A DNA stretch of 64,000 nucleotides from Rhodospirillaceae bacterium. GTDB taxonomy: Bacteria > Pseudomonadota > Alphaproteobacteria > JAEUKQ01. The notes beneath the pieces are model-generated. The model searched no databases, was not told the origin of the DNA, and was given only the letters and a program-made list of their open reading frames with translations. Location of the stretch: positions 319,760-383,759 of the forward strand of contig JADKIX010000011.1 of assembly GCA_016722635.1 (NCBI GenBank), read 5' to 3'. Below, one piece after another: positions 4,560-43,518 of this stretch. Made by a program: the position numbers and the translations under genes. Numbering within the stretch: position 1 is the stretch's first letter; each line of letters opens with the position of its first letter.

Positions 4560-5078
4560 TTATGACGCATCATAGATAAGTTTGTATTTCCGAGACATTC
4601 TATCCATAGTCAAACGCAGGGGGAACCCCCCTTGCAGTTTTTGCCGCAGCCTGTAGATGTGGCTTTCCACCGTTCGGGTTTCAATATTATTGGCATAACC
4701 CCAAATTTCTTTTAGTAAATCCTTGCGGTTCAACCCTTCCGGCCGATGATGCAATGCTTTTAAAATGGCTATTTCTTTTTCCGTTAAATAGACTTTTTTA
4801 TTGTTTTTTTTACAAAATATATATTGCTGCAAAGGATCAAAAAGATAGAGATCTGTTTCAATTGGTTTCCGTTCATTATTTTGCAACAGCAACTGTAAAT
4901 ACTCAACCAACTGCTGCAGACGGAATGGTTTTTGCAGCCATTTGATCCCGCCTTGACGATATTCAGCCTCCCTATCGGTGGCCGCACTCAGGATAAGAAG
5001 TGGTTGATCTGGACTGGCATGTCTAAAATTTGCCAAAAAATCGTCCATAACCCCTTGATCAAAGCCATCAAGATCCAA
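4560..5078 (-). CDS. OmpR-family response regulator, disrupted; the intact gene would span 4560..5214, with a +1 frameshift in the T5 run at 5171-5175
   Basis: C-terminal winged-helix trans_reg_C domain plus the C-terminal two thirds of a receiver (LDLDGF...LSAAT...QKPF); upstream in-frame and -1-frame segments encode the missing beta1-alpha1-beta2 (MVVSHDVFLISIIK / TDLGNKLGIAVDYTQELSDIY). Confidence 0.7.
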   Translation of the reverse strand: MDLDGFDQGVMDDFLANFRHASPDQPLLILSAATDREAEYRQGGIKWLQKPFRLQQLVEYLQLLLQNNERKPIETDLYLFDPLQQYIFCKKNNKKVYLTEKEIAILKALHHRPEGLNRKDLLKEIWGYANNIETRTVESHIYRLRQKLQGGFPLRLTMDRMSRKYKLIYDAS

Positions 5079-8484: not shown

Positions 8485-9132
8485 CTTTGGTTTCCCAAGT
8501 TAAAAGTTAATTAAATACAAAAATTTCACCTGAAAAAGTCTTCCTTAGAAGAAAAACTGTACCCCTGCAAAATTTTTAACAAAACCATAAAGAATATATA
8601 ATATTCTGAAGTCCAGGATACCGCCCTATTTGTTATACTCCAACTTGCCGACACTCGGCATTTTCGAATAAAACGTTAGATGTTTCGTGTAAGCCCCTGA
8701 ACAATAAGAAAAAATATATATTTAATGCTTAACAGTTTTTCATCTTATCTAGGTAACTGGCGTGGTCAAGCGTATTCTATGCTGAATCCCACCAGATTAT
8801 AAGATTTTTTTACTGCTGTTGCAGTTATGCAACATTGGCCTATGCATGCATGACGATTATTTGATTGCACTCGTTCACTGTTGCTGGCCTGAGTGTTTTG
8901 TCCCGTCGAGGCCACCCTGATCTTGATAAGAGGCCATTCCCGAACATTGCGGCCCTTATGTTAGGCCACCTGGTCAATAAAGAATAGTCACTCCTAAAAT
9001 ATTAAGGAAGGCTGACCAAATCGGCCAGTTTGTTTTGTAAATGGATTGATATGTTCCATAAAAAAATGCTACCATTTCCTAATATAATTGTGTATTGTTG
9101 ACCCTATAATATGATTATTTCAGGAGTATCCG

Positions 9133-9718
9133 ATGTTGACCACCCCTTCTGTTCCGAAAAAGCTTTGCTTAAACACCTCTTTTTCATACCGTGTCTGCAC
9201 GAAACTTTTGCTGATTTCCTTCGCCGGTTTTATCCTGGCCAATTGTTCTGCTGGGGATCCCAATGATCCTGGTATCCAAGGGGCGACGGGGGCTGAGCAG
9301 CGGCGCATCCGCAACGGCGGCAATCAAACGGTTTGGGGCGATGGCGGCTTGAACTTATTTGGCAAAAACAATAAGGGGCCGGTCGTGGTTGAAGGGGTTG
9401 GGGTCAACAGCTTTCCTGTGGCGCGCCTCCCTGGATGCTATTTCCTTTATGCCGCTGGTTTCTGCTGATCCTTTTGGCGGTGTCATCATTACCGATTGGT
9501 ATAGCAGTCCGGAACTCCCAAATGAGCGGTTTAAGGTGAATGTACGGATTTTAACCCGTGATCTGCGGGCAGATGGGATTAGCATTTCCTTATTCCGCCA
9601 AACCCGGACAAATGCCAATGCCGCATGGGCAGATGCCATTACCAGCAAAAAGGCTATCCGCGATTTAGAAGATGCGGTTTTGGCCCGCGCCCGCGAATTA
9701 CGAATCGGCGCCCGTTAA
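9133..9718 (+). pseudogene. alphaproteobacterial lipoprotein (DUF3576-like), split by a +1 frameshift at the TTT run 9412-9414
   Basis: ORF 9133-9468 carries a signal peptide/lipobox and ORF 9359-9718 carries the conserved domain (AFLWRASLD...GGVIITDWY); removing one T gives a continuous ...GVNSFLWRASLD... Confidence 0.6.
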
Positions 9719-9903
9719 TTCAAGTCGCCTGAAAAAAGATCAGGGTTTTGATCAATCCCCTCCTTATATTTAAGGCACGGCTTGGATATAATGCTAGGGG
9801 CGAGGATATAGGGAACCTGGTATGAAAGGGTTAGGTGAATTGGCCTTTTGTACCAGAGGGATTCATAGCGATAGAATGGTTTTATTTGAGAGCGATGGGG
9901 CAA

Positions 9904-14052: not shown

Positions 14053-14068
14053 CGTTTCACGTGAAACA
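14053..14068. promoter_or_regulatory. parS: parS centromere-like site, 15/16 match to TGTTTCACGTGAAACA
   Basis: cGTTTCACGTGAAACA palindrome in the holA-parB convergent intergenic region. Confidence 0.7.
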
Positions 14069-14310: not shown

Positions 14311-15177
14311 TTATTTTTTTTGTGCCTGCAACCGATGGAGGATGGCTTCTAATTCCTGCAAGGTTTTATACCGCAATGTCAGCATACCGCCGTTCCCATG
14401 CAGGGTAATGCGTGCTTTTGCCCCAAGCAAGGTTGATAAATCTTTTTCCAAGGCAATAATTTCTGATTGACGGTTTTGCCAACGATTAGCTGCAATGTTT
14501 TTTAAAGCTTTATGGTTTTTGCGGCTTAATTCCTCTGTCTCCCGCACGCTTAAATCTTCCGCAATCACCTGTCTTGCTAAACGCACCGGATCCTTGGCAT
14601 TAAGTAGCGCGCGGGCGTGACCCGCGGATAAATCGCCGCGCGTCAGTAATTCTTTAATTTCCGCGGGTAAATCCAGCAATCGCATCAGGTTGGCAATATG
14701 ACTGCGGCTTTTCCCAACCATTTCTGCAATTTCTTCCTGTTTTTTGCCGAATTCATGGAGCAAGCGGTGATAGGCTTCCGCTTCTTCCAATGGCAGTAAA
14801 TCCTGGCGTTGCAAATTTTCAACCAGAGCAATCTGCAGAACTTCCTGGTCATTCATTTCCTTGATAACAACCGGTACTTCTTTTAAGGCAGCAATTTTTG
14901 CTGCCCGCCACCGGCGCTCACCCGCAATAATTTCATACTGTCCCGCAAGATTGGGGTGCTTCCTGACCAATAAAGGTTGCAAAATCCCATCCTGCCGGAT
15001 GGATCCAGCCAATTCATTCAATTGTTCCGGCAGGAATGTCCGCCTTGGCTGTAAGGTGCTGGGTTGTAGCACATCATGGGCCAGTAGCAGGAATGAAGGG
15101 GATGATGTTTCTTCGCCTTCCACCATATTGCCAAATAAAGCCGCTAACCCGCGCCCTAAATTTCGTTTTTCAACCAT
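14311..15177 (-). CDS. parB: chromosome partitioning protein ParB
   Basis: GERRWRAA ParB box and HTH, N-terminal RGLAAL. Confidence 0.92.
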   Translation of the reverse strand: MVEKRNLGRGLAALFGNMVEGEETSSPSFLLLAHDVLQPSTLQPRRTFLPEQLNELAGSIRQDGILQPLLVRKHPNLAGQYEIIAGERRWRAAKIAALKEVPVVIKEMNDQEVLQIALVENLQRQDLLPLEEAEAYHRLLHEFGKKQEEIAEMVGKSRSHIANLMRLLDLPAEIKELLTRGDLSAGHARALLNAKDPVRLARQVIAEDLSVRETEELSRKNHKALKNIAANRWQNRQSEIIALEKDLSTLLGAKARITLHGNGGMLTLRYKTLQELEAILHRLQAQKK

Positions 15178-15195: not shown

Positions 15196-15978
15196 TTAAA
15201 TAACCAGTTTTTCACGGCGCACCATTTCGGCTGCTAATTGGATGTAAGCTTGGGCCCCAACGCTTTGATGATCATATAATAATACCGGTTTTCCGTGGGA
15301 AGGGGCTTCCGATATTTTCACGTTACGCGGGATAACCGTTTCATATACCTTATCCCCGAAATATTGGCGCGCATCCCCCGCCACTTGATTACATAAATTA
15401 TTGCGCCGATCATACATGGTCAAGACAATGCCTTGGATCTCAAGCCCCGCATTCAATCCCGCCCGTACCCGTTCAATGGTTTTAATCAGCAAGCTAAGGC
15501 CCTCCAAAGCATAAAACTCACATTGTAAAGGCACCAAAACTTGAGCGGCGGCGACAAACGCGTTTAGGGTTAATAAGTTTAAAGAAGGCGGGCAATCAAT
15601 GAAAATAATATCAAAAAGCTTCTTGTCTATTTTTTGCAAAGCCATTTGTAATTTATGTTCACGTTTTGGCATTTCCACCAATTCAATTTCCGCCCCCGCT
15701 AATTTGATCGAGGCTGGAATGATAAAAAGGTCAGGAACCTGGGTGGTTTGGATCAGCGGGGTTGGGTCCTTATCCGCAATCAGCATGTCATAAGTGGACA
15801 ATTGGCGTTTGGTTTGATCAATCGCCAAACCGGTGCTGGCATTCCCCTGGGGATCCAAATCAACCACCAAAATCTTTAACCCATAAGCGGCTAAGGCGGT
15901 TGCCAGATTCACGGCAGTAGTGGTTTTACCAACCCCCCCTTTTTGATTAGCAATCGCAATAATTCTTGGTTTATTCAT
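15196..15978 (-). CDS. parA: chromosome partitioning ATPase ParA/Soj; start at MNKPRII, ORF open to 16017
   Basis: deviant Walker A KGGVGKTT. Confidence 0.92.
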   Translation of the reverse strand: MNKPRIIAIANQKGGVGKTTTAVNLATALAAYGLKILVVDLDPQGNASTGLAIDQTKRQLSTYDMLIADKDPTPLIQTTQVPDLFIIPASIKLAGAEIELVEMPKREHKLQMALQKIDKKLFDIIFIDCPPSLNLLTLNAFVAAAQVLVPLQCEFYALEGLSLLIKTIERVRAGLNAGLEIQGIVLTMYDRRNNLCNQVAGDARQYFGDKVYETVIPRNVKISEAPSHGKPVLLYDHQSVGAQAYIQLAAEMVRREKLVI

Positions 15979-16092
15979 CAGACTGCCTTTACATTCTAGG
16001 GATATTTTGCCAACCACGGCAATGGCTGGCTTACTTTACTTGCTTTGCCTATTTTAGAATTTTTTGAGCCCATCACTGCCTCGGTTTTGGTG

Positions 16093-16728
16093 TTAGGCGA
16101 TTCGCGTTATTTTTTCAATGATTAAAATCTTAGCTTGCAAATCTGTTAAACTAGAGTGGGCTTGATACGAAAAATTCCAGTGCTTTTGCGCCTGTTGGAT
16201 TTCTTCTTTCCATAATTTCCCTTTTAAGAAAACAGCCTTGGCCTGGTCATGCCATTGATGGCGGCAAAGGTTAAATAATTGATCCAATTTTGCCAGCGCC
16301 CTGGATGTTACTATATCAATTTTCAGGAATTCAACTGTTTCCACCCGTTGATTAAGTACGGTTATTTTTTTTGATGCAATAGCTGCAGTTCCAAACAGCT
16401 GATAGGCAACTTCCTCCAAAAAAATCGCTTTGCGCTGGTCTGACTCAACTAAAACAACTTCTGGGACACCCATGATGGCTAAAACTATTCCCGGCAAACC
16501 GGCGCCCGATCCCATATCGATTATCTTTTGGGGAAGCACTGGTAATAAGGTCAGGATTTGGCCGCTATCTAAAATATGACGTTCCCAAATATCCCCAACC
16601 GTTTCCTCCGCAATCAAATTCAACCTTTTTTGCCATTGGCCGAGAAGGGTCACATATAATTGCAGGCGCTGAAATGTTTCACGTGAAACATGTAAAAGGG
16701 CTGCACATTCTTCTGCGGTTTTTGTCAT
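16093..16728 (-). CDS. rsmG: 16S rRNA (guanine527-N7)-methyltransferase RsmG (GidB)
   Basis: SAM motif DMGSGAGLPG; synteny with mnmG and parA. Confidence 0.9.
   Translation of the reverse strand: MTKTAEECAALLHVSRETFQRLQLYVTLLGQWQKRLNLIAEETVGDIWERHILDSGQILTLLPVLPQKIIDMGSGAGLPGIVLAIMGVPEVVLVESDQRKAIFLEEVAYQLFGTAAIASKKITVLNQRVETVEFLKIDIVTSRALAKLDQLFNLCRHQWHDQAKAVFLKGKLWKEEIQQAQKHWNFSYQAHSSLTDLQAKILIIEKITRIA
16675..16690. promoter_or_regulatory. parS: parS centromere-like site, perfect 16/16 TGTTTCACGTGAAACA, inside the rsmG 5' coding region
   Basis: exact palindromic consensus ParB-binding site. Confidence 0.8.
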
Positions 16729-16748: not shown

Positions 16749-18615
16749 TTATGCCGTTTGCTGAACGGGCTTTTTATAGGCATATTTCAATAAAATCGTT
16801 AAAGCAGCTGGGGTGATGCCCGGAATACGGGAGGCGGCCCCAACACTATACGGCTTGGCTTGATTAAGCTTTTTTTGCAGCTCGGCCGACAAACCAGGAA
16901 TACCTGAAAAATCCAATAATGGTGGCAAAAAAAGTTCTTCATCTTGACGGAATAACCGGATATCGGTTTCATGCCTTTTCATATAACCAGAATATTTGGC
17001 TTCAATTTCCAATTGCTCTACAATAGCGTTCGGAACCCCCACTAGATTTGGAAAAATTTTGCATAATTGCTGCCAATCTACTAGTGATGCAGCCAACACA
17101 TCCAACACCGATCGTTTAACCCCGTCCGCATTGACGCCCACACCCAAGCGTTGCCATTCTGTCGGGGTGGCCGACATTTTTTCAAGTGTTTGCTGCGTGG
17201 TTTGTAATTGTTCCATTTTGGTTATGTAATGCTGCTGACGAAGCGCACCCACACACCCTATTTTGATCCCACGCCCAGTTAAACGGCGATCGGCATTATC
17301 ACTGCGCAAATGTAGGCGATATTCTGCCCGTGAGGTAAACATGCGGTAGGGTTCATTTGTTCCCAAAGTAACCAGATCATCGATCATAACCCCGATATAG
17401 GATTCACTGCGGTCAAAAAATCTCGGGTGCCTTTCCACTGGCCTTATAAGCGGCATTCAATCCTGCTACAATCCCTTGCGCTGCAGCCTCTTCATACCCC
17501 GTAGTTCCGTTGATTTGGCCTGCCAAAAACAGGCGGGGCATTTTTTTTGCCTCAAGCCAAGGATATAATTCCTTTGGGTCTACAAAATCATATTCAATGG
17601 CATATCCTGGCCTGATCACTTTCGCATTGGCTAAACCCGGGATGGTTTTCAAAAGTGCTAGCTGCACATCTTCCGGCAGGGACGTGGAAATGCCGTTGGG
17701 ATAAACGGTATCGTCATCCAAACCTTCCGGTTCTAAAAATATCTGGTGCCGGGAACGGTCTGCAAAACGCACGACCTTGTCTTCAATAGAGGGGCAGTAA
17801 CGCGGCCCAATGCCTTCAATTTGGCCAGAATACATGGGGGAGCGATGCAAATTGGTCCGAATAATCGCATGAGTCGCCTCATTCGTGGCGGTTAAATAAC
17901 AAGGGATTTGTGGGGTTGTAATAGCCGTGGTTAGATAGGAAAAAGCCGGGATGGGAAAATCGCCGGGCTGCTTCTCCAAGCCTGACCAATCAATGGTCCG
18001 CCCATCTAGTCTGGGAGGAGTGCCTGTTTTCAAGCGCCGCAATTGAAACCCGATTCGCTCGAGTGAATTTGAAAGCCCTAAAGACGGTTTTTCTCCTACC
18101 CGGCCAGCTGGAACCTTTTTCTCGCCAATATGGATAAGGCCGCGTAAAAACGTACCGGTGGTAATCACCACAGCGCCCGCATAAAGGTTCTTTCCCTCAG
18201 CTGTCTGCACGCCGATGATTTCGTGGCTCTTCTCATCAACCAAAAGATTTTCAACGGATGCCTGGTAAATCTCCAGGTTTACCTGTTCCGCCAAGGCCGC
18301 TTGCATGGCAGCCCGGTATAATTTACGGTCGGCTTGCGCCCGCAACCCTCGCACCGCATGCCCTTTACTGGCGTTTAACATACGGAATTGGATACCTGCT
18401 TTGTCAGCTACCCGTCCCATCAACCCATCTAGCGCATCAATTTCCCTGACCAAATGTCCCTTGCCCAATCCACCAATGGCTGGGTTGCAGGACATCTCCC
18501 CAATCGTTGCCTGTTGGTGGGTCACCAGCAATGTCTTGGCCCCTAAACGAGCCGCCGCCGCCGCCGCTTCACAGCCAGCATGGCCACCCCCAATGACGAT
18601 CACATCTACTTTCAT
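16749..18615 (-). pseudogene. mnmG: tRNA uridine-5-carboxymethylaminomethyl synthesis enzyme MnmG (GidA), split by a +1 frameshift in the A6 run 17415-17420 (may be a sequencing artefact)
   Basis: ORF 17413-18615 is the N-terminal 400 aa ([13 protein letters not shown] motif) and ORF 16749-17456 is the C-terminal 235 aa (YRMFTSRAEYRL); deleting one A joins ...KAPEIF to DRSESYIGV... Confidence 0.85.
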
Positions 18616-20063: not shown

Positions 20064-20421
20064 GGGGAGCTTTATCCGTTGGTTTTAACATCAATCGATC
20101 GACAATCTTCCCTTGCAGAAGGTGGTTTTGGACGATTTCCTCAGCTTCTGCAACCGTTTGGCAATGATACCAAATGCCTTCGGGATAAATCACCACCACC
20201 GGACCTAATTCACACCGGTCCAAACACCCCGCGCTGTTAATACGCGTATCATCAAGCCCCAATTCTTTGGCACGCGCCTTCATATAATTCCGCAGTTTTT
20301 CAGAACCCTTAACCTTACATGAGCCGCGCGCATGATCGGCAGGACGTTCATTGGTGCAAAAAAACACATGATTGCGATAATAAAGCGGAACGGGAGAATT
20401 TACTTTGGGATGAGTGGTCAT
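20047..20421 (-). CDS. thioredoxin-like [2Fe-2S] ferredoxin
   Basis: four Cys in the FFC...GSC...GCLDRCELGP arrangement typical of thioredoxin-like 2Fe-2S ferredoxins; 17-nt overlap with mnmE. Confidence 0.65.
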   Translation of the reverse strand: MTTHPKVNSPVPLYYRNHVFFCTNERPADHARGSCKVKGSEKLRNYMKARAKELGLDDTRINSAGCLDRCELGPVVVIYPEGIWYHCQTVAEAEEIVQNHLLQGKIVDRLMLKPTDKAPLVPSC

Positions 20422-20669
20422 TTTTTACTGTCTTTTTTCTGAAAACTGCTACTAAAATCGGCGAATTTCTTTTGCCATTCCTGCCAATTTTCGGACATTC
20501 CGCCCATCCAGCTTTTCAGCAATTTTTCAGGACTTGATTCGCTGATGGCTGATAAAAGTTTTTCCTGGATTTCTTTTAAAAGCTCCTGTTGCATAGCACT
20601 CACATCCGGCAATCCGACCAGCCGCCTGATTTCCTCAGGTGGGCATTCAACCTCAATATGAAATTTCAT
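20418..20669 (-). CDS. small conserved hypothetical protein (83 aa, acidic/Trp-rich), coupled to the ferredoxin by an ATGA overlap
   Basis: ORF with 4-nt overlap to the downstream gene; no recognised domain. Confidence 0.4.
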   Translation of the reverse strand: MKFHIEVECPPEEIRRLVGLPDVSAMQQELLKEIQEKLLSAISESSPEKLLKSWMGGMSENWQEWQKKFADFSSSFQKKDSKK

Positions 20670-22771: not shown

Positions 22772-23838
22772 CACGGCTGACCTTTCAACTGGGTACGCTG
22801 ATAGCATCCACTTTTGGAAGACGGGCAGTATCCTTCCAAAGAACAGCTTGTTATAGAGGACTTCGACCGCATGGCCTGTTCCGTTAAATTGGCAAGCCCC
22901 TGGATAAATATCTCATCGATACCCACCGTCGGTAGCCGCCTGTAAAAAGCAGCACCTGCTTCTAAAGCTAAATCCCGGTAAGTGATATCCAGTTCAACCA
23001 GCGTTTCCGAGTGCTCCGACACAAAGGAAATCGGCACAATAATCAGTCCCTGATGCTGGTTGCTAAGCTCGCGGATTACATTCTCGCTATAAGGCTTTAG
23101 CCAAAGCACCGGGCCGACGCGGCTTTGATAGGTGATTTGCCATTGATCTGGTCGCAACCCTGCTTTTTCCGCCACTGCCGCAGCAGACGTGGCAATATGG
23201 ACATCATAGGGGTCACCTTGCTCCACAATTTTTTGAGGTAAGCCGTGGGCAGAAAAAAGGACTCGATAGGGCGTTCCTGGAAAATCCCGCTGCAACTGGA
23301 CCATTTCTTTTTGTAATGATTTTGCCATAACTTCCGTAAAACCAGACAACGTTGGATAACAGCAAACACTGGTTACGGAAGCGAGATGCCCCTGTTTTTT
23401 CCAAGTTTTTTGCCAATTGTCTAAGGAAGAAGCGGTGGTGGTAGTCGAAAATTGGGGGTACAAGGGCAAGGCGATGATTTGGTTTGGGTCGAAGTCCTTG
23501 ACTTGGCTCGCCACCTGCTGGCTGAAGGGATGCCAGTAACGCATGGAGATAAAAACCTTTACGGTATCTTTTAAAAAATTTTGCCTCAGTTTATTTTCCA
23601 GCGCCTCTGCTTGTTCTTGCGTATTTGCCAAAATCGGGCTGCCTCCGCCCAGATAGCTATAAATTTTTTTTGCTTTCTTTTGCCGACGCCAGGTGATGAA
23701 TTTGGCTAATAAAAAGCGAATCGGTTGGGGGGCTTTAATAATCGCTTTGTCCGAAAATAAATTATATAAAAAGCCGGAAACCGCTTTTTGGTTATCTGGC
23801 CCACCTAAATTGAATAAAATAACCGCAATACGCGCCAT
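22771..23838 (-). CDS. hemH: ferrochelatase
   Basis: ferrochelatase motifs (LFSAHGLP, ...ISFVSEHSETL). Confidence 0.9.
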   Translation of the reverse strand: MARIAVILFNLGGPDNQKAVSGFLYNLFSDKAIIKAPQPIRFLLAKFITWRRQKKAKKIYSYLGGGSPILANTQEQAEALENKLRQNFLKDTVKVFISMRYWHPFSQQVASQVKDFDPNQIIALPLYPQFSTTTTASSLDNWQKTWKKQGHLASVTSVCCYPTLSGFTEVMAKSLQKEMVQLQRDFPGTPYRVLFSAHGLPQKIVEQGDPYDVHIATSAAAVAEKAGLRPDQWQITYQSRVGPVLWLKPYSENVIRELSNQHQGLIIVPISFVSEHSETLVELDITYRDLALEAGAAFYRRLPTVGIDEIFIQGLANLTEQAMRSKSSITSCSLEGYCPSSKSGCYQRTQLKGQP

Positions 23839-24869
23839 TACTTTTTTCCTGATTTAACCAGATCAACTAATTGGTATACATTTTCCAATGGCGTTTGCGG
23901 AAGGATGCCGTGGCCTAAATTGAAGATAAACTTTTCCTTACCCATTTTTTGTATAATATTTTGTACATCATTCTTTAAATTCCCTATATCCCCAACTAAG
24001 CTAAACGGATCTAGGTTTCCTTGGATGATATAAGATCGTTTAGCTGCCGCTTGCAGGGATGTTAGCGGAACGGAACTATCGATGCTGATTGCATCGGCCT
24101 TTAATTGTTGCATATGGGGTGAATAATTCCAATAGCCGCCTTTTGGGAAGACAATAACAGGCGTTTTAGGAAACTCCTTTTTTATTTCTTGTATAATGTA
24201 GGAGGTGGGGTTTATTCCCCATTCCTTCATGGCCTCCGCTGAAAGCAGTCCTATCCAGCTATCAAAAAGTTGGACTATTTCAACGCCTGCCCTAATTTGC
24301 TCGGATAAATACCAGATGATTGCTTCCGACAATGTTTTAATTAATTGTTTAAATATCTGAGGTTTTTGGTAAGCAAGCAAGCGCGTATTAAAAAAATCCT
24401 TACTAGAACCTTGATCAATCATATAACAAGCCAAGGTCCACGGACAACCTGAAAACCCTATAAAAGTTGTTTCTGCAGGTAATTGGCTTTTGACAAGCTT
24501 TATGGTATCAAATACGGGACTTAATTTTTCTGTGAATGCCTGTTTTAAAAACGATAGAGGTTTTTCCGCGTTTTCAAGGGGGGAAAGTTTAGGCCCTATG
24601 CCTTCCACAAAAGTCACTTCTTGTCCAAAAGCGTAAGGGATAACCAATATATCAGAAAATAAGATTGCACCATCAAAACCAAATCTTCTAATTGGTTGTA
24701 AGGTTGCTTCCGCCGCAAGTTCTGCGTTTAGGCAAAAATCCATGAAGTTTTTAGCTTGCCCGCGTAATTTTCTATATTCGGGAAGGTATCTGCCAGCTTG
24801 GCGCATTAACCATACAGATGGGCGGGTGTTTTCATTGGTAAAAGTTAAAAGTAATTCTTTTTTCATCAT
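23838..24869 (-). CDS. hemE: uroporphyrinogen decarboxylase
   Basis: N-terminal PxWxMRQAGRYLPEY signature. Confidence 0.92.
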   Translation of the reverse strand: MMKKELLLTFTNENTRPSVWLMRQAGRYLPEYRKLRGQAKNFMDFCLNAELAAEATLQPIRRFGFDGAILFSDILVIPYAFGQEVTFVEGIGPKLSPLENAEKPLSFLKQAFTEKLSPVFDTIKLVKSQLPAETTFIGFSGCPWTLACYMIDQGSSKDFFNTRLLAYQKPQIFKQLIKTLSEAIIWYLSEQIRAGVEIVQLFDSWIGLLSAEAMKEWGINPTSYIIQEIKKEFPKTPVIVFPKGGYWNYSPHMQQLKADAISIDSSVPLTSLQAAAKRSYIIQGNLDPFSLVGDIGNLKNDVQNIIQKMGKEKFIFNLGHGILPQTPLENVYQLVDLVKSGKK

Positions 24870-25005
24870 TAATATTTATATAAATAATATTAGTATTGGT
24901 AGTAGGGGGACATAAAAACGGGAAAAAAATTTTATTAGAATAATATAAACAACCTTATCATTAATTTTTTTTATATAATATAGCTGTTAAACTGCGTTAG
25001 GGAGG

Positions 25006-25024
25006 GTTATCCAACTTATCCACC
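25006..25024 (+). promoter_or_regulatory. tandem DnaA boxes TTATCCAAC and TTATCCACC
   Basis: two 8/9 matches to TTATCCACA, one nucleotide apart. Confidence 0.55.
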
Positions 25025-25105
25025 AGTCTAATAAAAAAATATCCCCTTGTGAATAGATCAATGGATGAAATGTTGATAAAAGGGAAGAGAAAACAACGCG
25101 GGGTA

Positions 25106-25114
25106 TTTATCCAC
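25106..25114 (+). promoter_or_regulatory. DnaA box TTATCCACA (perfect)
   Basis: exact 9-mer consensus. Confidence 0.6.
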
Positions 25115-25165
25115 AGTTTGTTAGAGATGCTAAAAAAGAACGATTTAAAATAACAGGAAAAATAA

Positions 25166-25756
25166 ATGGCTAACATCGTTTTGGCATCAGGCAGCAAGAT
25201 TCGGTCCATTTTGCTTAAAAATGCTGGCGTTAGGTTTAAAGTCCAAGCGGCGGATATTGATGAAAACAAACTTCGCCAGGCAATCGCCACCAAGCCAATC
25301 CACCCTAAAAAAATGTCTTATATACTAGCCTTAGAAAAAGCTTGGAACGTCTCGGCGTTGGTAAAAAACAGCTATGTTATCGGGGCTGACCAATTGCTGG
25401 TTGTCCAAGAAAAGATTTTTGAAAAACCTGGAACTGAGAAAAAGGCCGTGCAACAATTGTTGGAACTTGCGGGTAAAACCCATCAATTGTGGACAAGTTG
25501 TGTTGTTGTTAAAGACGGGAAAGAACGATGGCATTACACCGCCAAAGCCTCGATGAAACTGGCCAGCCTTTCCCCAGCTTTTATAAAGGGTTATATTAAA
25601 CGTAACCCATGGGTGGTTAATTGTGTGGGTTCTTACCAATTGGAAGGAGAGGGGATCCAATTTTTCCAGAAAATTAGGGGTGACTATTTTTCCATTCTCG
25701 GATTACCATTGCATCCTTTGATCCTTTTCTTAAAAAAAGAACTATTACTAAGATAA
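25166..25756 (+). CDS. maf: Maf-like nucleotide pyrophosphatase / septum formation protein
   Basis: N-terminal LASGSKIRS motif, about 196 aa. Confidence 0.85.
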   Translation: MANIVLASGSKIRSILLKNAGVRFKVQAADIDENKLRQAIATKPIHPKKMSYILALEKAWNVSALVKNSYVIGADQLLVVQEKIFEKPGTEKKAVQQLLELAGKTHQLWTSCVVVKDGKERWHYTAKASMKLASLSPAFIKGYIKRNPWVVNCVGSYQLEGEGIQFFQKIRGDYFSILGLPLHPLILFLKKELLLR

Positions 25757-25779: not shown

Positions 25780-26397
25780 ATGAAAATATTTGGGTTAACA
25801 GGAAATATGGCGACCGGCAAAACCACCTTGGCCAAAATCTTACAGCAGAAAAAAATTCCTGTTTTTGAAGCAGACAAACAAGTTAAATTTTTACAAAGCC
25901 AGTCGCAGGCAATTCGGACGCTTTTGGCCAAAAAAGGCTTGGTTGCAGATGCAGAAAAGCCAATCTCTTCTAAACAGATGCGGGAATTAATTTTACAATC
26001 TCCCCACCTTTTAAAGGAGTTGGAAGCCATATATCATCCGGCGGTCCATATTTTGGAAACGAAATTCATTAGGCAAGCGCATCGGCAACGGCGAAAAGTC
26101 ATTTTCCTAGATATCCCGTTGTTGTTTGAGGTGGCAGATTACCAAGGTCGGTTTGATGCTATTTTTTTATCCTATGTCCCACCCTCTATCCAAAAACAAC
26201 GGGCTTTCAAAAGAAAGAATATGACGGCAGAATGGTTCTCATTCATTGACTCCCAGCAATTGCCGTCTAGATGGAAAATGAAACACTCCCAGGCGGTTAT
26301 CACAACTGGCCTGACTTTAAGGAGTAGCCGCTGGCAATTCCTTAGCAAACTAAAAGCCTTTTTAAGCCAGAAATCTTCTTATCAGAAATATCCTTAA
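25780..26397 (+). CDS. coaE: dephospho-CoA kinase
   Basis: P-loop GLTGNMATGKTT. Confidence 0.85.
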   Translation: MKIFGLTGNMATGKTTLAKILQQKKIPVFEADKQVKFLQSQSQAIRTLLAKKGLVADAEKPISSKQMRELILQSPHLLKELEAIYHPAVHILETKFIRQAHRQRRKVIFLDIPLLFEVADYQGRFDAIFLSYVPPSIQKQRAFKRKNMTAEWFSFIDSQQLPSRWKMKHSQAVITTGLTLRSSRWQFLSKLKAFLSQKSSYQKYP

Positions 26398-26407
26398 GGA
26401 ATACAAA

Positions 26408-27091
26408 ATGCGCGAAATTATCTTGGATACCGAAACAACAGGATTGGATCCAGAAAAAGGGGATCGGGTAATTGAAATTGCTTGCCTGGAGTTGCTTAAT
26501 CACTTGCCCACCGGACGGTCCCTGCAATATTATATAAATCCCGAGAGGCTGGTCCCAGCCGATGCAGTGGCTATTCATGGCATTACGAGCGAATTTCTAT
26601 TAGGTAAACCGAAATTTCCCGAAATAATAGGAGGTTTCCTTGAATTTATTGCAGACTCGCCTTTTGTTATCCATAATGCAGACTTTGATATCCGTTTTCT
26701 CAATGCAGAATTGGCCCGGGTTAAACATCCGCCTTTTCCCTTATCCCGCAGCGTGGATACGATCATATTGGCCCGTCAAAAATTTCCAGGTGCCCCGGCA
26801 AGTTTAGACGCTTTATGCAGACGGTTTAATATTGACACAAGTCACCGGGCAAAACATGGAGCATTGGTTGATTGTCAATTATTGGCTCAAGTTTATTTGG
26901 AATTGCGGGGGGGAAGACAAAAAGGTTTTGCCTTGGATTCCCTTGAATCTTCCCATAATTCTTTAGCTAAGCCACAAGCGCGGAAAAATTTTTCAAGGAA
27001 ATTAATCATTCCCTCTTCCCCCCAAGAGGATGCGGATCACCAGCATGTCCTGCAAAAATTGCGTAAGGCACTATGGCTCCAGCTAAAATAA
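26408..27091 (+). CDS. dnaQ: DNA polymerase III subunit epsilon (3'-5' exonuclease)
   Basis: Exo I motif ILDTETTG, Exo III HGALVD. Confidence 0.9.
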   Translation: MREIILDTETTGLDPEKGDRVIEIACLELLNHLPTGRSLQYYINPERLVPADAVAIHGITSEFLLGKPKFPEIIGGFLEFIADSPFVIHNADFDIRFLNAELARVKHPPFPLSRSVDTIILARQKFPGAPASLDALCRRFNIDTSHRAKHGALVDCQLLAQVYLELRGGRQKGFALDSLESSHNSLAKPQARKNFSRKLIIPSSPQEDADHQHVLQKLRKALWLQLK

Positions 27092-27654: not shown

Positions 27655-27939
27655 GTACCATATTCCCTAACAATAATAACTTTACAAAAAGAAGTTCAAC
27701 AACCCTTATGCCCGAACCTGTTTTTTTTAGCAAGTATCTTGATATATTAGGCTTTACCCGAGATATTATTCACTGAACTGATGTGGCAAAATACTAAATC
27801 AAGAAATCAATCCATATAATGTGGGCGGATTTTTGAACAATACAATTTGCCTTTTCCGCGGTATTTGCTAAAATCCTCAGAGAAAATTGGGGTGTTTAAA
27901 AGCCCTTTATGTTTAAAATTGTACTGTAGAATCAAACAA

Positions 27940-33188: not shown

Positions 33189-33301
33189 CTTATATATGGG
33201 ATAGGTTCTTTAAGTAACAAGATCGACCCCCTGATAAAATATTTCAAGCGGGTAAAACAACAGAAGAATAAAATACAAAATAATAAAGATGGGAAGAAAA
33301 A

Positions 33302-35253: not shown

Positions 35254-35602
35254 TCCTACAAATTAAGGCATTAAGATAAAAATTCACGAATATATCTTGC
35301 AATATAAATTTTCAAAATCAAGTGCCACATCAATAAAACAGTCAAAATGGTCGATATAAAAATGGCCAATGACTCCAAGTATCCCGGTTAATCGTAAAAC
35401 ATAATTGAAAAATCCCAAAGGATCATATAGCGTTGGTAGGTATAGAAAGGTAATATTTTCCTATATCCGTTAAAGATTAATTTCGTGATCAATTTAATAA
35501 TAAAGATAATAGCTACTCGGTAAATTAAAGCCTAAAACTAAATATTGCTAACTCGTAATACGGTTTAGCCAGAATTTTAAACAAGCTGACTTATATAACA
35601 TA

Positions 35603-43338: not shown

Positions 43339-43518
43339 TATAAATAACTTTCATTGCTTAAAATGCCTGAATATTATCACTTTATTCATAAACGATATGA
43401 AAATAAAATGATAGAGAAGTGTTGAGAAGTTGCGAAATAATTCCTATTTACTAGAAACGCATAAGCAAATTAATTTTGATTGGGACTATCCTCAAGAAGG
43501 GTTGATACAGTTGAAACG

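Follow-up and report, generated by a model that had tools for sequence, protein, structure and literature searches.

The hemE-maf intergenic region as the probable chromosomal replication origin of an uncultured alphaproteobacterium

The 296 bp that separate hemE from maf are very probably the chromosomal origin of replication (oriC) of this uncultured alphaproteobacterium, a reading to which we give a probability of about 0.9. Judged from its sequence and gene neighborhood, the gap appears to be the local version of the hemE-linked origin of Caulobacter, Rickettsia, Azospirillum, Sphingopyxis and others. The reading is based on six features: a cluster of DnaA boxes, an AT-rich segment, a switch in GC skew, the parS sites and parAB genes, purifying selection on the gap, and the presence of DnaA boxes in the equivalent gaps of seven lineages. 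A preliminary description had already put the gap forward as a candidate oriC, and all the lines of evidence that can be tested on the window (the whole 64,000-nucleotide stretch of DNA analyzed here) and on related loci agree with that interpretation. In the mechanism we propose, DnaA-ATP would bind boxes B1, B2, C, D, and E (25007-25115; orientations + + - - +) and probably also the degenerate boxes A and A′ (24943-24963). The protein would then oligomerise and melt the adjoining unstable AT-rich DNA at the left (24870-24985), and the opened DNA would give access to helicase loading and bidirectional replication.

The gap is non-coding, exactly as first delimited, and its GC content is 27.7% (0.277 vs. 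0.45 for the whole window). The gene order in the left part of the window is leuS, holA, parS, parB, parA, rsmG (with a parS inside), mnmG, and mnmE, followed by genes for a ferredoxin and a DUF6489 protein, rho, hemJ, hemH, and hemE, and then the gap (Table 1). To the right lie maf, coaE, dnaQ, secB, tim44, mltA, smr, and hslUV; the flanking order hemE / maf-coaE-dnaQ-secB had been described correctly. Both hemE and maf belong to the indicator genes of Ori-Finder (PMC3794950). The surroundings thus combine the indicator genes hemE, maf, and gidA/gidB with parS and parAB in a position proximal to the proposed origin: the two parS sites and parAB, previously placed within 11 kb, are found 8.2-10.8 kb from the gap. 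No dnaA occurs among the 60 window proteins scanned with NCBIfam. The whole 64 kb contains neither a tRNA gene nor an Rfam family at the gathering threshold, and a search for RNA elements in the gap itself found no Rfam family, the sole hit being at chance level (E = 0.39).

Table 1. Positions of the proposed origin, its sequence elements, and the flanking genes and par loci in the window.
Feature	Position	Strand	Remarks
parS, one mismatch	14053-14068		downstream of parB; 10.8 kb from gap
parB	14311-15177	-	
parA	15196-16017	-	
parS, perfect TGTTTCACGTGAAACA	16675-16690		within rsmG; 8.2 kb from gap
hemE (uroporphyrinogen decarboxylase)	23838-24869	-	TIGR01464, 383 bits; left boundary of gap; origin indicator gene
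AT-rich direct repeat, copy 1 (ATCATTAAT...TTTATATAA)	24860-24883	+	overlaps hemE start codon
hemE-maf intergenic gap, proposed oriC	24870-25165		296 bp, non-coding, 27.7% GC
AT-rich segment, candidate DNA unwinding region	24870-24985		
TAG TAT TGG TAG TAG + GGGGG, DnaA-trio-like run with GC cluster	24891-24909	+	
Box A, degenerate ATATAAACA (6/9)	24943-24951	+	
Box A′, degenerate TTATCATTA (6/9)	24955-24963	+	3 bp after box A
AT-rich direct repeat, copy 2	24955-24978	+	holds degenerate box A′ and a TATAAT hexamer
Box B1, TTATCCAAC (7/9)	25007-25015	+	
Box B2, TTATCCACC (8/9)	25016-25024	+	abuts B1
Box C, CTATTCACA (plus strand tgtgaatag)	25048-25056	-	7/9 strict; 8/9 vs. TTATNCACA
Box D, TTATCAACA (8/9)	25071-25079	-	inverted
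Box E, perfect TTATCCACA	25107-25115	+	
maf	25166-25756	+	right boundary of gap; divergent from hemE
coaE	25780-26397		after maf
dnaQ	26408-27091		after coaE

Some other genes of the window show irregularities of their own. mnmG (gidA) is represented by two ORFs that overlap (16749-18615, minus strand): ORF 17413-18615 covers HMM positions 2-394 and ORF 16749-17456 covers positions 391-614. Dropping one T from the T6 run at 17415-17420 restores the reading frame, and the split is either a homopolymer error of sequencing or assembly or a very recent pseudogene. The 1.35 kb between a porin-like gene and leuS (8485-9834) contains no ORF of at least 120 aa. The ORFs 9133-9468 (with a lipoprotein-like signal) and 9359-9718 overlap in different frames and resemble a single frameshifted gene; besides mnmG, this would be another hint that the assembly contains frameshift errors. 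An OmpR-type response regulator of 172 aa (4560-5078, minus strand) matches family profiles from about position 60 onward only, so that its receiver domain is incomplete at the N-terminus; it has a 298-bp gap upstream and may be truncated or frameshifted. The DUF6489 gene (83 aa, 20418-20669, minus strand), situated between rho and ferredoxin/mnmE, has no NCBIfam match, and its position is kept in three related loci (L010, L011, L012).

Five clear DnaA boxes (B1, B2, C, D, and E) lie inside the gap on a stretch of 109 bp, one of them perfect, two matching at 8/9 positions and two at 7/9. Box E is the only perfect TTATCCACA in the 64 kb; at box C, the minus strand continues with AGGGG and then a T-run. 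All the boxes listed in the preliminary description exist, but every coordinate was one base low and the 8/9 box D had been missed. The perfect box had been placed at 25106-25114 and the weaker inverted box tgtgaatag, a 7/9 match by the strict consensus, at 25047-25055. The tandem pair, described as two 8/9 boxes at 25006-25024, occupies 25007-25024, and only TTATCCACC matches at 8/9 whereas TTATCCAAC matches at 7/9.

Counted over the whole window, boxes with no more than one mismatch are not enriched (19 vs. 17.3 expected), so the claim of an oriC from its boxes rests on their clustering. When sequences were shuffled with their dinucleotides preserved, three such boxes inside 100 bp were reached by 3/300 shuffles of the window and by 0/3000 shuffles of the gap itself, which retain the AT-richness of the gap. 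A comparison of the 19 intergenic gaps longer than 80 bp in the window singles out the same region. The hemE-maf gap holds one perfect box, three with at most one mismatch, five with at most two mismatches, and four matches to TTATNCACA with at most one mismatch, compared with 0, 0-1, 0-3, and 0-1, respectively, in the other 18; it is the sole gap with more than one box at one mismatch or better. These counts bear directly on the reading that box-like words came together by chance in what is simply an AT-rich region of divergent promoters, as the AT-leaning DnaA box, the 72% AT of the gap, and the window-wide count at expectation might suggest. Against it, the composition-preserving shuffles of the gap never reach three boxes, and three equally AT-rich gaps (33189-33301, 35254-35602, 43339-43479) hold none. 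Independent lineages, including the GC-rich Aliidongia and Nisaea, are equally enriched, with only the box core in common. The probability that we allow to chance is next to negligible: the gap shuffles, the enrichment in seven lineages, and the k-mer test described below effectively refute it.

The AT-rich stretch originally noted at 24870-24960 is real, reaches about 24985, and contains the least stable DNA of the window. By nearest-neighbor free energy, the two least stable 40-mers of the 64 kb are 24852-24892 and 24940-24980, the two least stable 60-mers are 24923-24983 and 24838-24898, and the least stable 100-mer is 24877-24977. By predicted duplex stability, a candidate AT-rich unwinding element lies adjacent to the boxes. 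Inside this putative unwinding region, a 24-nt AT-rich direct repeat occurs in two copies 95 bp apart; copy 1 is kept in 5/5 members of the clade, and copy 2 falls within the invariant block 24954-24983. Three places are candidates for the unwinding site: the block nearest to hemE, where conservation in the clade is highest, the segment 24923-24983 (with repeat copy 2), and the A-run beside box C.

The basal unwinding system (BUS) of the Bacillus subtilis type consists of DnaA boxes, a GC spacer, and DnaA-trios. The origin of B. subtilis has an arrangement of GC cluster, trio, and AT-rich DNA, and in both E. coli and BUS origins the box next to the unwinding element is oriented towards it. In the gap, B1 and B2, the strong boxes closest to the AT-rich region, are oriented away from it. 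The hemE strand of 24870-24909 resembles the BUS in having a GC cluster followed by CTA CTA CCA ATA CTA and then AT-rich DNA, but differs in that the CTA run (the TAG run of the plus strand at 24891-24909) has no DnaA box within 16 bp. A further likeness to the BUS is the AGGGG and T-run that come after box C. The GTAGTAG core of this run is invariant in 5/5 clade members, down to 61% HemE identity; as GTAGTRG it also occurs on the same strand in Nisaea and Aliidongia, and in all lineages examined it lies 27-85 nt from the hemE start. In the unbiased k-mer test, the TAG-run motif is common only at k=5. The BUS rule calls for a DnaA box and, after a spacer of no more than 16 bp, three or more trios that have an A in the middle, on the opposite strand (PMC8287927). 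One formal match was found in the gap (box C, AGGGGAT, and four trios), and 25% of the shuffled gaps do equally well. A BUS or DnaA-trio module is retained as a lead only, the formal match being at chance level and the TAG run having no nearby box. It is rather unlikely, though conceivable, that the gap represents a minimal, CtrA-free 296-bp origin in which unwinding depends on the TAG repeat and GC cluster at 24891-24909 with no adjacent DnaA box. The distance from this element to the start codon of hemE is only about 22-40 bp and, if such a reading were true, it would act as a DnaA-trio-like module, and origin melting and the initiation of hemE transcription/translation would use the same DNA.

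GC skew amounts to -0.040 left of the gap and +0.043 right of it, and the cumulative G-C curve has its minimum within the 64-kb window at 23179. Because gene orientation influences skew, the skew of each gene was regressed on replication side and gene strand. With gene strand controlled, the effect of side was 0.042 ± 0.007 for all positions and 0.051 ± 0.013 for third codon positions. The sign of the skew fits an origin rather than a terminus, the leading strand being G-rich on both sides. The gene-strand bias right of the gap is weak, with 19/40 genes co-oriented. The position of the switch is known no more closely than about 22-34 kb: splits across this interval fit almost equally, and the best one (33.5-34 kb) is marginally ahead of 23 kb. 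This resolution would accommodate an origin in another gap of the neighborhood, for example secB-tim44 (27655-27846), hslV-hit (33189-33301), or yifB-transporter (35254-35602), the last of which is 71% AT and contains the 100-mer that ranks second in instability in the window. Yet these candidate gaps hold no perfect box, no one-mismatch box, and 0-2 two-mismatch boxes, and none of them adjoins an origin indicator gene of the canonical cluster, whereas the box cluster tracks hemE in 7/7 lineages. We regard a location in one of these gaps as highly improbable.

The lineage is isolated: the nearest HemE relatives share 90, 78, and about 62% identity, and the following ones 50% or less. The closely related loci compared were that of an activated-sludge MAG (L001, HemE 90%) and those of three metagenome contigs (L004, 100%; L005, 93%; L006, 92%). 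Further loci (L011, 78%; L012, 62%; L002, 61%) and the distant ones of Aliidongia dinghuensis (L013, 48%) and Nisaea nitritireducens (L014, 45%) were included as well. Four loci with HemE identities of 36-43% (L003, L007-L009), which have no box cluster upstream of hemE, were left out as too distant. The gap is shown to be under purifying selection: in L001 it is also 296 bp long, with zero indels relative to the window, and it diverges by 12.8% vs. 29.5% at four-fold degenerate sites taken from hemE, hemH, maf, and coaE (Fisher p = 1.6e-7). Blocks unchanged between the window and L001 are 24870-24909, 24954-24983, box C with its flanks, and box E with its flanks; the last of these (25104-25136) is invariant in L001, L004, L005, L006, and L011.

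A DnaA-box cluster is found in the hemE-adjacent gaps of 7/7 lineages. Each gap holds 2-5 boxes with at most one mismatch (P ≤ 0.006 for each against shuffles of the same gap), in a set that extends from 90% down to 45% HemE identity and includes the GC-rich Aliidongia and Nisaea. The degenerate boxes also have counterparts: at the position of box A, L001 has GTATCAACA and L011 has TTATAAACA, whereas L012 and L002 both have a perfect TTATCCACA, and at that of box A′, L002 has TTAACCACA and L012 has TTAATCACA. Box B1 reads TTTTCCAAC in L001 and TTATCCTAC in L011, while the position of B2 is kept as TTATCCACT in L001 and TTATCCACC in L011. The position aligned with box C is CTATCCACA (8/9) in L011, L012, and L002, and box D is represented at the same position by ATATCCACA in L011 and TTATTAACA in L001. 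Box positions that are kept while their mismatches vary would be expected if selection acts on the binding of DnaA and not on one exact sequence. The unbiased k-mer test was applied to four independent gaps (window, L002, Aliidongia, and Nisaea). The only 6- and 7-mers common to all four on the same strand are ATCCAC, TCCACA, CCACAG, ATCCACA, and TCCACAG; shuffles gave a mean of 0.01 common 7-mers (P < 0.0005 at k=7). Outside the gap, a TTGTCCACA box (8/9; 25488-25496, minus strand) lies about 320 bp into maf. It is kept in L001, L004, L005, and L006 and not in L002, and could represent either coding constraint or an outlying DnaA site.

The boxes could instead be regulatory, serving the hemE and maf promoters, or form a titration or reactivation site (as datA and DARS), with the origin elsewhere. 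The gap must hold the promoters of both genes, a TATAAT occurs in the invariant block 24954-24983, and promoters could account for part of the conservation seen in the gap; moreover, dnaA and its surroundings are outside the window, where a second box cluster is possible. Promoter-like sites, however, are not enriched in the gap (3 vs. 2.3 expected), and in Caulobacter the hemE promoters sit inside the origin (PMC6393856), so promoters and an origin are compatible. A purely regulatory role also leaves aside that the skew switches in the direction of an origin independently of gene strand, that parS and parAB lie 8-11 kb away, that the gap has the least stable DNA of the window, and that its synteny is homologous to that of the experimentally mapped Cori (PMC1914354). 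We consider such a role very unlikely and retain the assignment of the gap as oriC.

As an origin, the locus would anchor replication in a poorly sampled, uncultured alphaproteobacterial lineage. It could be used to rotate and orient MAGs, to estimate growth rate from metagenomic read depth (peak-to-trough ratio), and to compare origin architecture across the class. It also offers a clear case of a trimmed hemE / DUF299-maf-aroE-coaE-dnaQ cluster without CtrA, IHF, or CcrM motifs. The understanding of origins is unchanged; the hemE-linked type is already well known.

Among origins of this type, that of Caulobacter has been mapped experimentally beside hemE (PMC1914354, PMC6393856), hemE-adjacent origins have been predicted in Rickettsiales (PMC1914354), and the Sphingopyxis origins are predicted at hemE (PMC4741004). 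Like the Caulobacter Cori and the Rickettsia prowazekii origin, the gap lies directly upstream of hemE, is divergent from the maf-coaE-dnaQ block, and combines several DnaA boxes with an AT-rich region. In Caulobacter and Rickettsia, the gene opposite hemE across the origin is COG1806/DUF299 and not maf (PMC1914354). The preliminary description, which held that the gene order matches these two genera, was right in substance but overlooked that the gene across the origin there is DUF299 and that this gene is deleted here.

Aliidongia and Nisaea carry the order hemE / Kinase-PPPase (PF03618 = DUF299 = COG1806)-maf-(aroE)-coaE-dnaQ. Both DUF299 and aroE are missing in the window, L001, L002, L011, and L012, and no remnant of either was found in the gap or the window; the stretches set against the window gap were 2736-3560 of L013 and 2770-3675 of L014. 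The arrangement described here is the canonical origin cluster after loss of DUF299 and aroE, the hemE and COG1806/DUF299-maf-aroE-coaE-dnaQ block being present in reduced form; because the two genes were lost without remnant, hemE adjoins maf directly. Since Aliidongia and Nisaea carry the intermediate cluster, the gap is homologous by synteny to Cori.

Besides lacking the DUF299/COG1806 gene and aroE, the gap differs from Cori in its binding sites. The boxes are near the E. coli consensus, whereas Caulobacter has weak W boxes and moderate G boxes. With 296 bp, the gap is also shorter than the origins listed in PMC1914354 (>380 bp). No CtrA site (TTAA-N7-TTAA) was found in the gap, either strict or with one mismatch, and no strict site occurs in the gaps of the six relatives examined. 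Matches to a loose TTWW-N7-TTWW pattern were discarded as evidence of CtrA control, as they represent compositional T-runs (P = 0.05). The gap likewise contains no IHF site by two versions of the consensus (WATCAANNNNTTR and WATCAN5WTR) and no GANTC (CcrM) site. Unlike Cori, the putative origin has no motifs that would point to regulation through CtrA, IHF, or CcrM.

The chromosomal origin of Sinorhizobium meliloti is reportedly hemE-adjacent too. Like the gap, it is alphaproteobacterial and without CtrA-binding motifs (PMC4433202). In Azospirillum, oriC is flanked by yqfL (DUF299) and hemE, and the distances to its two parS sites are 9.9 and 11.8 kb; in Azospirillum baldaniorum it contains six DnaA boxes in mixed orientation, parS consists of two 16-bp palindromes, and parAB is about 12 kb away (bioRxiv 10.64898/2026.09.14.751567). 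The gap is also hemE-adjacent, with five to seven boxes and parS at 8.2 and 10.8 kb, and differs in that the neighbor there is yqfL (DUF299) and here maf. Judged by these distances and counts, the geometry of parS sites and boxes is nearly identical to that of Azospirillum.
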